Assembly (NCBI GenBank): GCA_040755335.1
Contig: JBFMAU010000002.1
Location: 1-52,321 of the forward strand
DNA: 52,321 nucleotides
From: Acidobacteriota bacterium
Lineage (GTDB): Bacteria > Acidobacteriota > Blastocatellia > UBA7656
Direction: 5' to 3'
The notes beneath the pieces were generated by a model. The model made no database searches and had not been told where the DNA came from. It was given only the letters and a program-made list of their open reading frames with translations. The position numbers and the translations under genes were made by a program. Below, in pieces: positions 35,318-38,137 of the stretch (the first letter of the stretch is position 1; each line of letters begins with the position of its first letter).

Positions 35318-38137
35318 ATGCTGGAAGGCAATATCCCTGAAGCTCTGACCTTTGACGACGTTTCGATAGTTCCCGCAAGAAGCGGCGTCCTCCCGACTCA
35401 GGCCGACACGACGACGCGATTCACGCGCAATATACCGCTCAATATTCCAATCACCTCAGCCGCTATGGACACGGTGACGGAATCCCGGCTGGCGATAGCC
35501 ATCGCGCAGCACGGCGGACTGGGAGTCATTCACAAGAATCTCTCGATAGAGGCGCAGCGCGACGAGGTCGATAAAGTAAAACGAAGCGAATCAGGCATGA
35601 TAGTCGATCCGGTGACGATGACGCCCGATCATCCCATCTCGGAAGCGATGGAGGTGATGGATCGCTATCACATATCGGGCGTCCCCATAGTCGAAGAAAA
35701 CGGCCATCTGGTCGGCATACTAACCAATCGCGATCTGAGATTCGAGACTCGATTGAATCTTCCCATCAGCGAAGCGATGACCAAAGATAATCTCATCACC
35801 GTGCCTGTCGGAACCACGCTCAACGAAGCTAAGGCCATACTGCAACGATACCGCGTCGAAAAACTCCTGGTCGTCGATGAGAATTACAAGCTCAAGGGTC
35901 TCATCACGGTCAAAGATATTCAAAAAGCGATTCAATATCCGTTTGCGGCGAAAGACTCATTGGGTCGTCTGCGGGTTGCGGCGGCCATTGGCGCAACGGG
36001 CGATTTTTTAGAGCGCGCCGAAGAATTGGTCCGCGCTCGCGTCGATTGCCTCATAATTGACACGGCTCACGGTCACACGGAAGGAGTCATCTTTGCGGCT
36101 CGTAAGATCAAGAGCCGATTCCCTGAAATCGATCTCGTAGCAGGAAACATCGCCACTGCTGAAGCGACGCGGGATTTGATCTCGGCGGGAGTCGATGCGG
36201 TCAAAACAGGTATGGGCGGCGGGAGTATATGCGTTGAGGGAAACACGCTGATCCTGATGGCCGACAGCAGCGTGAAATATGTCAGAGAAGTGAGGACAGG
36301 CGAACTGGTCATTACTCACACAGGAGAAGCGCATCCGGTGACCAAAACTTATCGGCGTTTGTACAAGGGGCCAATGATCGCTCTCAATGTTGGAGGGTGT
36401 CCGGGCAAATTGCGGATGACTCCCAACCATGAAGTTCTTGCAGTCACTTTCGACGTTCCCCCCAGTGTGCGCAAGAAGAATGGAGCAAAGTATTTCTTCT
36501 CAACCCAAAGGTGCAACAACGGGTTGCGATGGGTGCGCGCCGATGAGTTGAAGCCGCAGGATGTGCTTGCTATCCCAAGGCAGCAGTACAAAATCGAAGC
36601 TCACATCTTCGATCTGGCCAGAGCCGTCTCCCACTACCATGCGGACGATTTATCGGTGTGGGCGAACAAACCGAGCCGCAATTTCAACGATGAGAATTAT
36701 CACGAACTGGCTGACCGGTTCGGCACGACAGCCAGAGTGATAGGCGCGATTGTGACGCGCAAGCGTCGCGTGATGGATGAACTCAACGCCAGCGTCAGTT
36801 CATACCTTGATGAGATTGGATACGTGCGATATATGCAGCCGGTCAAGTTGCGTCGATTCATTCCGCTGGATGCGAATCTGATGCGATTGATCGGATACTA
36901 CATCGCCGAAGGCTATCCGTCGGGAGCGGCGAACAACCGTCAGGCGCGATTCTGTTTCAATGTCAAAGAACGCGCTTATGCCGAAGATGTTCGCAGTTTG
37001 ATAGGCTCGATATTCGGCTATCATGGAACGACGCTTAGAGAAACGCCGCGCCACGCGCTTGAAGTCATCGTCCACAATCACGCCATAGCGCGATTCTTCG
37101 AAACGCTTATTCCGAGCGGCGCGCCCAACAAGCGATTGCCCGGTTTTCTTCTCAATCAAACACAAGAATGCCTGCGCCAGTTGTTGATAGGCGCGCTGCG
37201 CGGCGATGGCTGTTTGAAGAACCCGCGACGAATTTCTTATCACACAGCTTCGCCAGATCTCGCCCATCAAATCGCCGAAGTTTTTTCGCGGCTCGGCTAT
37301 ATGCCTTCGATCCAAAGCTGTCAGCCCAGGCAAGAGAAATGGTCGACCAAATACACAGTTCGCATCAGCGGGGCGCAGTGCGAAAGATTCGCCAAGGAGT
37401 TCCCTGAACTTGATCTCCGCTTCCCCTCTGATATGAAAGTGAGGCAGGATTATTTCGTGGACGACCGTTACATCTACGTCCCGATTCTCTCAACTCAAAT
37501 CGAAGAAGATCAGGAACTGGAAGTATTCAATCTCGAAGTCGCGAAAGACCACACATACATCGCCAATCGTGTAGCGGTTCACAACTGCACAACTCGCGTA
37601 GTGTCGGGCACAGGCATACCGCAGATTACGGCTATCATGAATTGCGCGCGGGCGGCTCGCGGGACAGGCATCCCGGTTATAGCCGACGGAGGGATCAAGT
37701 ATTCAGGCGACATCGCCAAAGCGATAGCAGCGGGCGCGGATTCAGTGATGATCGGTTCTCTGTTTGCCGGGACGGATGAAAGCCCCGGCGAGATAATTCT
37801 ATTTCAGGGCCGCTCCTTCAAAGGCTATCGCGGAATGGGATCGATTGCCGCTATGAGAGAAGGCAGCCGCGACCGATACGGTCAATCTGATCAGCCTCTC
37901 TCGAAACTCGTACCCGAAGGCATAGAAGGGAGAGTTCCCTACAAGGGGCCGCTTGCGGGAGTCGTAGAGCAACTCGTCGGCGGACTTCGCGCGGGGATGG
38001 GCTACTGCGGATGCCCTACCATCGGCGATATGCAGGAGCGAGCGCAATTCATAAGAGTGACGGCGGCAGGCTTTCGCGAAAGCCACGTGCATGACGTGAT
38101 CATCACCAAAGAAGCGCCCAACTATAGAATCGAGTAA
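35318..38137 (+). CDS. guaB: IMP dehydrogenase precursor interrupted by an intein (487-aa extein plus 452-aa intein)
   Basis: N-extein ...[10 protein letters not shown]..., tandem CBS domains, ...[12 protein letters not shown]-extein [17 protein letters not shown]...[14 protein letters not shown]...GSLFAG...GYRGMGS. The normal length is about 488 aa. Confidence 0.95.
36230..37585 (+). mobile_element. Class-1 intein with LAGLIDADG homing-endonuclease domain, inserted before the catalytic Cys of IMPDH
   Basis: Cys1 ([12 protein letters not shown]), block B TPNH (36419-30), LAGLIDADG motifs [10 protein letters not shown] (36887-916) and [11 protein letters not shown] (37181-213), blocks [23 protein letters not shown], +1 Cys of GSI|CTTR. 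Confidence 0.9.

Follow-up and report, generated by a model that had tools for sequence, protein, structure and literature searches.

A stretch of 52,321 nucleotides (nt) from an Acidobacteriota bacterium (assembly GCA_040755335.1, contig JBFMAU010000002.1, positions 1 to 52,321; referred to here as the window) carries a guaB gene for IMP dehydrogenase (IMPDH) that is interrupted, in frame and directly before the codon of the catalytic cysteine, by what is very probably a mobile class 1 intein with a LAGLIDADG homing endonuclease. The window intein has all its determinants intact and is probably functional. Below we describe the precursor and the insert, the uninterrupted site in a close relative, the other carriers of the same allele and the explanations that compete with this one.

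A 452-residue insert splits the guaB reading frame

The guaB precursor is an open reading frame (ORF) at 35318..38137 of the plus strand, on which all coordinates below lie unless a strand is given, and consists of 939 codons plus a stop. The insert spans nt 36230..37585 (1356 nt, 452 amino acids [aa], precursor residues 305 to 756), is in frame and is flanked by ...KTGMGGGSI before it and CTTRVVSG... after it; with the insert taken out, an IMPDH of 487 aa is left. An earlier note on this DNA had reported a 939-aa ORF with a 452-aa insert between GMGGGSI and CTTRVV, and the ORF list and the coordinates bear this out in length, position and size. The junction DNA quoted there, GGGAGTATA/TGCACAACT (here and below a slash marks a junction), is likewise correct, and the filled site as a whole reads GGCGGCGGGAGTATA/TGC...AAC/TGCACAACTCGC.

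The precursor matched the TIGR01302 model IMP_dehydrog (E = 2.7e-174, 580 bits, cut-off 481.5) in two pieces that flank the insert, and Pfam recognized IMPDH (1e-149) together with a CBS pair (two CBS domains). The GSICTTR catalytic loop becomes whole only once the insert is removed. The N-extein (aa 1 to 304, 35318..36229) comprises the N-terminal half of the barrel and the CBS pair and ends in ...KTGMGGGSI, and the C-extein (37586..38137), beginning with CTTRVVSG..., supplies the remaining 183 aa and the stop. A precursor with 452 aa inserted in its active-site loop would be enzymatically dead, and we infer that it depends on splicing for enzyme activity. No second IMPDH and no second copy of the intein were found within the window, and none of its ten largest other ORFs contained an intein domain.

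The impression, recorded earlier by eye, that the insert is more AT-rich than the exteins holds for total composition (52.4% GC in the intein versus 55.4% in the exteins), but the difference is marginal (among all 1356-nt windows of this sequence, the intein falls at the 4.6th percentile), and third-position GC is the same in both (60.4 versus 60.5%). Foreign composition, slight in total GC and not seen at third positions, was therefore dropped as evidence.

Intein blocks, profiles and predicted fold of the insert

Sequence profiles assigned both a splicing and an endonuclease part to the insert. Pfam LAGLIDADG_3 matched two stretches (E = 1e-15), Pfam Intein_splicing matched with an E value of 5e-8 (below its gathering score), and TIGR01443 (intein_Cterm) scored 19.1 bits against a cut-off of 15.6. 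Among NCBIfam models, the insert also matched the intein portions of PRK14715 (DNA polymerase II large subunit) and of the intein-containing Tes, RecA and GyrA models; no IMPDH model was among the intein-specific NCBIfam models matching the precursor. The nearest solved relative by sequence was PI-PkoII (2cw7; E = 4e-10).

An AlphaFold2 model of the intein, built on a 17-sequence family alignment, reached a mean predicted local distance difference test score (pLDDT) of 82.5 and a predicted TM score (pTM) of 0.70, with low confidence in the final 10 residues. The best Foldseek matches of this model were PI-PkoII (1e-17), TliVMA (1e-16), PI-SceI (4e-14) and PI-PfuI (2e-9). Its central domain matched I-DmoI (TM about 0.7 on the target), I-SceI and I-Tsp061I, and showed in these comparisons the pseudo-dimeric alpha-beta-beta-alpha-beta-beta-alpha LAGLIDADG fold; the terminal parts matched mini-inteins and a hedgehog autoprocessing (Hint) domain, and the Prp8 intein was also among the matches of the model.

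The splicing residues lie at both ends of the insert. Cys1 (36230..36232, block A), the predicted nucleophile of the N-S acyl shift, is invariant in 19 related inteins, the set to which invariance refers throughout. It opens the N-terminal Hint part (intein aa 1 to 148, 36230..36673), which is mostly beta-strand in the AlphaFold2 model, is kept in the mini-inteins described below (P0013, P0015 and P0017) and contains block B, TPNH (36419..36430), of which T64 and H67 are invariant. The C-terminal Hint part (aa 396 to 452, 37415..37585; blocks F and G, matched by TIGR01443) holds the invariant residues V432, N434, E436, V437, D440, Y443, R447, V450, H451 and N452. The penultimate His451 and the terminal Asn452 (37580..37585), predicted to serve in Asn cyclization, are followed by the +1 Cys (37586..37588), so that the junction reads ...VAVHN/C. 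This cysteine is the predicted transesterification nucleophile and, after splicing, would become the catalytic Cys305 of the IMPDH.

Between the two Hint parts lies the LAGLIDADG core (aa about 205 to 395, 36842..37414), which has the I-DmoI fold, gives the LAGLIDADG_3 match and aligns with residues 264 to 413 of PI-PkoII. The first LAGLIDADG motif (block C, 36878..36916) contains the catalytic E227, and its M218, R219, L220, G222, Y223, A226, E227 and G228 are invariant; in the second motif (block E, 37172..37216), with the catalytic D326, the invariant residues are L315, G321, G325, D326 and G327. The lysine of block D, K301 (37130..37132, in APNKRLP), is also invariant and aligns with 'aenkriPeF' of PI-PkoII; we take it to be the counterpart of the active-site lysine of PI-SceI. 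A conserved three-helix, helix-turn-helix (HTH)-like module (aa about 155 to 195, 36692..36814; helices 157-164, 168-175 and 184-195 in the AlphaFold2 model) precedes the core. Its match to a Mor-family HTH is weak (E = 0.005, below cut-off), and it is lost along with the endonuclease in the mini-inteins; it probably assists the endonuclease as an accessory element that binds DNA.

This residue set is that of a class 1 intein with a monomeric, double-motif LAGLIDADG homing endonuclease, and there is hardly any doubt that the insert is an intein. The splicing determinants named in the earlier note (Cys1, TPNH, the terminal HN and the +1 Cys) and the acidic residues of both LAGLIDADG motifs (E227 in IAEGY, D326 in RGDG) were all found, the latter intact and both sets invariant, and its description of a full-length LAGLIDADG intein is borne out by the sequence profiles and the predicted fold. 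From its sequence, we predict with good confidence that the window intein is splicing competent, and we lean towards an endonuclease that is still active in this copy.

The insertion site and its uninterrupted counterpart

In a gapless alignment, the +1 Cys fell on residue 304 of the 489-aa IMPDH chain 5ahn_A. In the IMPDH of Pseudomonas aeruginosa, Cys304 is the catalytic cysteine, on the loop 297 to 315, and in the IMPDH mechanism the catalytic cysteine attacks C2 of IMP to give E-XMP (PMC3606566). The placement of the insert directly before the IMPDH catalytic cysteine, as claimed earlier, was thus upheld. Since the +1 Cys in the GSIC-TTR loop aligns with the catalytic Cys304, one thiol is predicted to act first in transesterification and then in catalysis.

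The spliced 487-aa sequence found its best protein match in an insert-free IMPDH, also of 487 aa and 96% identical, and more than 100 further intein-less IMPDHs of the Blastocatellia type were 81 to 89% identical. The contig of the best match (L075), and likewise L076 and L077, is syntenic with the window (ABC permease, redoxin, UGSC, proS, guaB, methyltransferase). Its guaB, like those of L076 and L077, has 1464 nt including the stop, which is the length of the joined exteins, and aligns to them without gaps at 87.5% nt identity; the N-extein corresponds to its first 912 nt, and the 1356 nt of the intein are absent from all three contigs. The uninterrupted site in L075 reads GGCGGCGGCTCAATA/TGCACGACTCGCGTG. 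The presumed homing site, for which no strand is assigned, is accordingly divided in the window into a left half at 36215..36229, GGCGGCGGGAGTATA, and a right half at 37586..37600, TGCACAACTCGCGTA. The sole length difference between the window guaB and its empty relative is the exact 1356-nt insert, so that the alignment to intein-less guaB genes proposed in the earlier note shows a precise in-frame insertion. The ratio of nonsynonymous to synonymous substitution rates (dN/dS) of the exteins against the empty allele was about 0.05 (dS 0.61), which indicates that the host gene is under normal constraint.

The peptide around the site, G-x-G-[PG]-G-S-I/C-[TI]-T-R, was conserved in 19 of 19 filled alleles. 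Co-conversion, or synonymous codons shared beside the insertion site, was looked for and gave no pattern, the Ser codon being AGY in 9 of the 19 and TCN in the other 10. At 36209..36217 (GGG of GMGGGSIC), the window and the closest empty relative, P0022, have Gly at the position where nearly all other IMPDHs have Pro (G[IM]GPGSIC), and this Gly coincidentally reproduces the GGG of the native N-extein of the split IMPDH-1 intein, which is discussed below.

Other carriers of the intein

When the intein by itself was used as a protein query, 21 clusters were returned, in all of which it lies within IMPDH, with an identical junction in every cluster that reached one; the named sources among them were Blastocatellia or Pyrinomonadaceae. 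Genomes were then scanned, one per GTDB species, with a 5-row alignment (A2) as the query; a 17-row alignment (A1) was too gappy for this use and had been replaced. The scan yielded 18 genomes with an intein of 451 to 454 aa at the same junction (GSI/C...HN/C[TI]TR) and with no internal stops. Carriers were found among Blastocatellia, Pyrinomonadaceae and other Acidobacteriota, in one Rhodothermales metagenome-assembled genome (MAG) and in Chloroflexota, represented by one MAG each of Oscillochloris and Anaerolineales and by the cultured Herpetosiphon geysericola DSM 7119 (L011). Two Heimdallarchaeota MAGs were the archaeal carriers, with an intein identity of about 41%. In a scan of viral contigs, just three distant relatives (24 to 30% identity) were found, with no sign of a phage vector for the allele.

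The intein closest to that of the window (L001) was 77% identical. The MAG that carries it is labelled 'uncultured Clostridia', and its exteins are 85 to 90% identical to the Blastocatellia-type IMPDH of the window; it is almost certainly a Blastocatellia contig with a wrong label. The label of L012, 'Candidatus Gracilibacteria', also looks wrong, as the intein tree and the extein tree alike place this locus with Oscillochloris. Two metagenomic homologues, P0003 (C-terminal 50 aa or so) and P0002 (residues about 540 to 590), contain out-of-frame, low-complexity sequence in or after the intein, and are either decaying alleles or products of a frameshift in assembly or sequencing.

The nearest relatives of the intein in hosts other than IMPDH (L019-L027, L026/L043) were more distant, with 24 to 28% identity, and each lies directly before a cysteine. 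In one group the junction is GQLSA/CF in ORFs of about 1170 aa from Omnitrophota and Planctomycetia, and in the other, found in archaeal ORFs, the insertion precedes the final Cys of a CxxxCxxC motif. Judged by their junction motifs, these hosts look like ribonucleotide reductases and radical-SAM proteins.

Selection, endonuclease loss and signs of horizontal spread

Across the 19 inteins, 79 columns were invariant, including C1, T64, H67, E227, K301, D326, Q406, N434, H451 and N452, and at no site invariant in the other inteins did the window copy carry a change of its own. Approximate pairwise dN/dS values (Nei-Gojobori, nine pairs) were 0.09 to 0.24 in the endonuclease region, 0.06 to 0.16 in the splicing parts and 0.03 to 0.12 in the exteins, with the exception of the exteins of the cross-phylum pair L005-L006 (0.32 to 0.36). 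The endonuclease is under strong purifying selection, consistently in nine of nine pairs.

Among close relatives in the extein tree, alleles with and without the intein are intermixed: the partner of the window is P0022 and that of L001 is P0023, both of which are empty. Three IMPDHs of 712 to 730 aa (P0013, P0015 and P0017) carry mini-inteins of 224 to 242 aa at the same site. These have no HTH module and no LAGLIDADG core, with two different sets of deletion end-points, and they keep Cys1, TPNH and HN/C.

The intein and extein trees agreed, with minor differences in branching order, save for the Rhodothermales intein (L006, 4001-5356 on MAG contig JANQES010000004.1). This intein falls inside the acidobacterial clade, beside L005 and with inteins of Pyrinomonadaceae, while its exteins lie outside Acidobacteriota. 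In the L005-L006 pair, dN was lower in the intein (0.23 to 0.29) than in the exteins (0.35 to 0.40), and L006 was 63.7% identical to the window in the intein versus 55.2% in the N-extein. Unless the contig was mis-binned, this looks like a transfer of the intein between phyla. In the two Heimdallarchaeota (L016 and L017, both 4001-5353), intein dS was 0.10 to 0.17 versus 0.48 to 0.53 in the exteins, and nt identity was 96.4% in the intein versus 88 to 91% in the exteins, a contrast which suggests a recent exchange of the intein between Asgard lineages. The same two loci differ by an indel of about 1 kb directly upstream of guaB (L016 1951-3000). These two comparisons, of the Rhodothermales MAG and of the Heimdallarchaeota pair, indicate horizontal spread of the allele.

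Predicted splicing and homing

The splicing steps set out here are those of the intein family. The 939-aa precursor would be made as a single chain, in which Cys1 would undergo an N-S acyl shift with the assistance of T64 and H67, and the +1 Cys would attack the thioester (transesterification). Asn452 would then cyclize with the help of His451 and free the 452-aa intein, and an S-N shift would ligate ...GGGSI to CTTR... to give the 487-aa IMPDH, in which the same cysteine would go on to attack C2 of IMP. In homing, the freed intein would act as a site-specific DNase that cuts intein-less guaB genes at the sequence coding for GGxSI/CTTR, and repair off the filled allele would copy the intein into the cut guaB.

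Several points weigh against a mobile, self-splicing intein in the window. Position 4 of block F is Asn (N434, invariant). Many class 1 inteins have Asp, not Asn, at this position. For every member of the allele, splicing and DNA cleavage are predictions from residues and fold. An intein-free second IMPDH may exist elsewhere in the genome, the search for one having covered the window, where none is present. Synonymous sites were saturated (dS > 1) in most of the pairs compared, which makes the dN/dS values approximate, and the intein and extein trees are neighbor-joining trees without support values. Finally, dS between the window and L001 was equal in intein and exteins, and the window lineage thus shows no sign of recent mobility.

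Alternative explanations

It is possible, though we consider it rather unlikely, that splicing is intact and the endonuclease inactive in the window copy, the intein being passed on vertically as a resident passenger that has reached a late stage of homing. The equal synonymous divergence of intein and exteins between the window and L001, which points to no recent transfer, fits such a state, as does a third-position GC content of the intein equal to that of its host, as in a fully ameliorated sequence, and the endonuclease-deleted derivatives show that the family decays. Against an inactive endonuclease, the window copy retains both catalytic acidic residues, the block D lysine and every other position that is invariant in the family, its reading frame of 452 codons is unbroken, and dN/dS of the endonuclease region in the window-L001 pair was 0.17.

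Conditional splicing is known for other inteins. It has been argued for inteins in general terms (PMC4760082), and for the window intein it would mean that the element is kept since splicing, and with it GTP synthesis, responds to redox state, temperature or a metabolite; a disulfide that forms reversibly between Cys1 and the +1 Cys would be one example of such a gate. Under oxidative or other stress, splicing could then be halted reversibly and IMPDH kept in its inactive, unspliced form. Both junction nucleophiles are indeed cysteines, the one at +1 being also the reactive thiol of the enzyme itself, and the allele persists over several phyla under strong constraint. We nevertheless consider such a switch improbable: we found no evidence specific to it, most close relatives are intein-free (more than 100 empty alleles at 81 to 96% identity), and empty sites, mini-inteins and horizontal spread together form the pattern of a purely selfish element. 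If true, a conditional gate on guanine-nucleotide synthesis would help to explain the retention of the intein in Acidobacteriota, Chloroflexota and Asgard archaea.

That the insert is instead a lineage-specific IMPDH domain lacking intein blocks, a case the earlier note had considered, or that the gene is a pseudogene or an assembly artefact, has nothing in its favor but the unusual ORF length and is extremely improbable, as all intein blocks and the intein fold were found, purifying selection on the exteins is strong (dN/dS about 0.05), the frame is open throughout and the same architecture recurs in 18 independent assemblies, one of them of a cultured isolate.

Other features of the window

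Downstream of guaB, between 39100 and 40750, long ORFs overlap on opposite strands: one of 354 aa at 39685..40749 on the minus strand faces one of 328 aa at 39724..40710 on the plus strand, and several more lie at about 39100 to 39740. By eye, the ORF at 39724..40710 (plus strand) looks like the real gene of the two, resembling diacylglycerol or lipid kinases.

Comparison with known inteins

The split IMPDH-1 intein is now a standard tool for protein ligation. IMPDH has been known as an intein host since 2009, when three metagenomic loci of the Global Ocean Sampling (GOS) data were found to pair a split intein with a free-standing Vsr-like endonuclease (Dassa et al. 2009, PMC2677866), and we took the IMPDH-1 sequence from the supplement of PMC7090010. 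IMPDH-1 and the window intein share the host enzyme, the catalytic loop, class 1 membership, Cys1 and a terminal HN, and the N-terminal Hint part of IMPDH-1 is detectably similar to that of the window intein (BLASTP E = 1e-6; hhalign probability 96.7%). The two differ in architecture and placement. IMPDH-1 is encoded by two genes with the Vsr-like endonuclease between them, whereas the window intein is a single ORF with an embedded LAGLIDADG enzyme, and the IMPDH-1 junction is GGG/SIC, with a +1 Ser two residues upstream of the window junction, GGGSI/C, with its +1 Cys. In the N-terminal Hint part the two are 24 to 28% identical, no closer than inteins of other hosts, and at this identity descent from split IMPDH-1, or origin as a shifted copy of it, was rejected as a specific relationship. 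From the different junction and the low identity, we regard the window intein as a separate allele at a neighboring site, outside the IMPDH-1 allele.

PI-PkoII (DNA polymerase intein 2 of Thermococcus kodakarensis), PI-SceI, PI-PfuI and TliVMA resemble the window intein in having a Hint domain interrupted by a two-motif LAGLIDADG enzyme and extra DNA-binding parts. They differ in their hosts (DNA polymerase, V-ATPase and ribonucleotide reductase) and are only 10 to 17% identical in structural alignments. Inteins at the thiyl-radical cysteine of class I/II ribonucleotide reductases offer a parallel in placement, insertion at the most conserved residue, essential for catalysis, which then serves as the +1 nucleophile (PMC2677866), but the ribonucleotide reductase-type relatives found here differ from the window intein in host and target sequence and share 24 to 28% identity with it.

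On whether the present site was already catalogued, a question raised in the earlier note, the answer is divided: IMPDH is a known host, solely through the split IMPDH-1 intein, and no paper on a contiguous IMPDH intein, at this site or elsewhere, was found in the searchable literature, curated intein registries being outside the scope of that search. The tables in the main text of Novikova et al. (2016) contain no IMPDH. One metagenome annotation already names a homologue 'IMP dehydrogenase/GMP reductase/intein/homing endonuclease'. Novelty is therefore limited to an allele not described in the searchable literature.

The general understanding of inteins is unchanged by these findings, the window intein being a textbook case at a catalytic nucleophile, a typical placement. 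What is added is a contiguous, endonuclease-bearing allele at a second insertion point of the IMPDH catalytic loop. With a Cys+1 intein native to GGGSI/CTTR and natural, minimized versions of 224 to 242 aa, the family could provide candidates for protein engineering. The cultured carrier Herpetosiphon geysericola DSM 7119 makes splicing of an essential metabolic enzyme testable in vivo. The allele is spread over three bacterial phyla and Asgard archaea, and within a single data set its family illustrates every stage of homing, from empty sites through full inteins to mini-inteins, with one apparent transfer across phyla.

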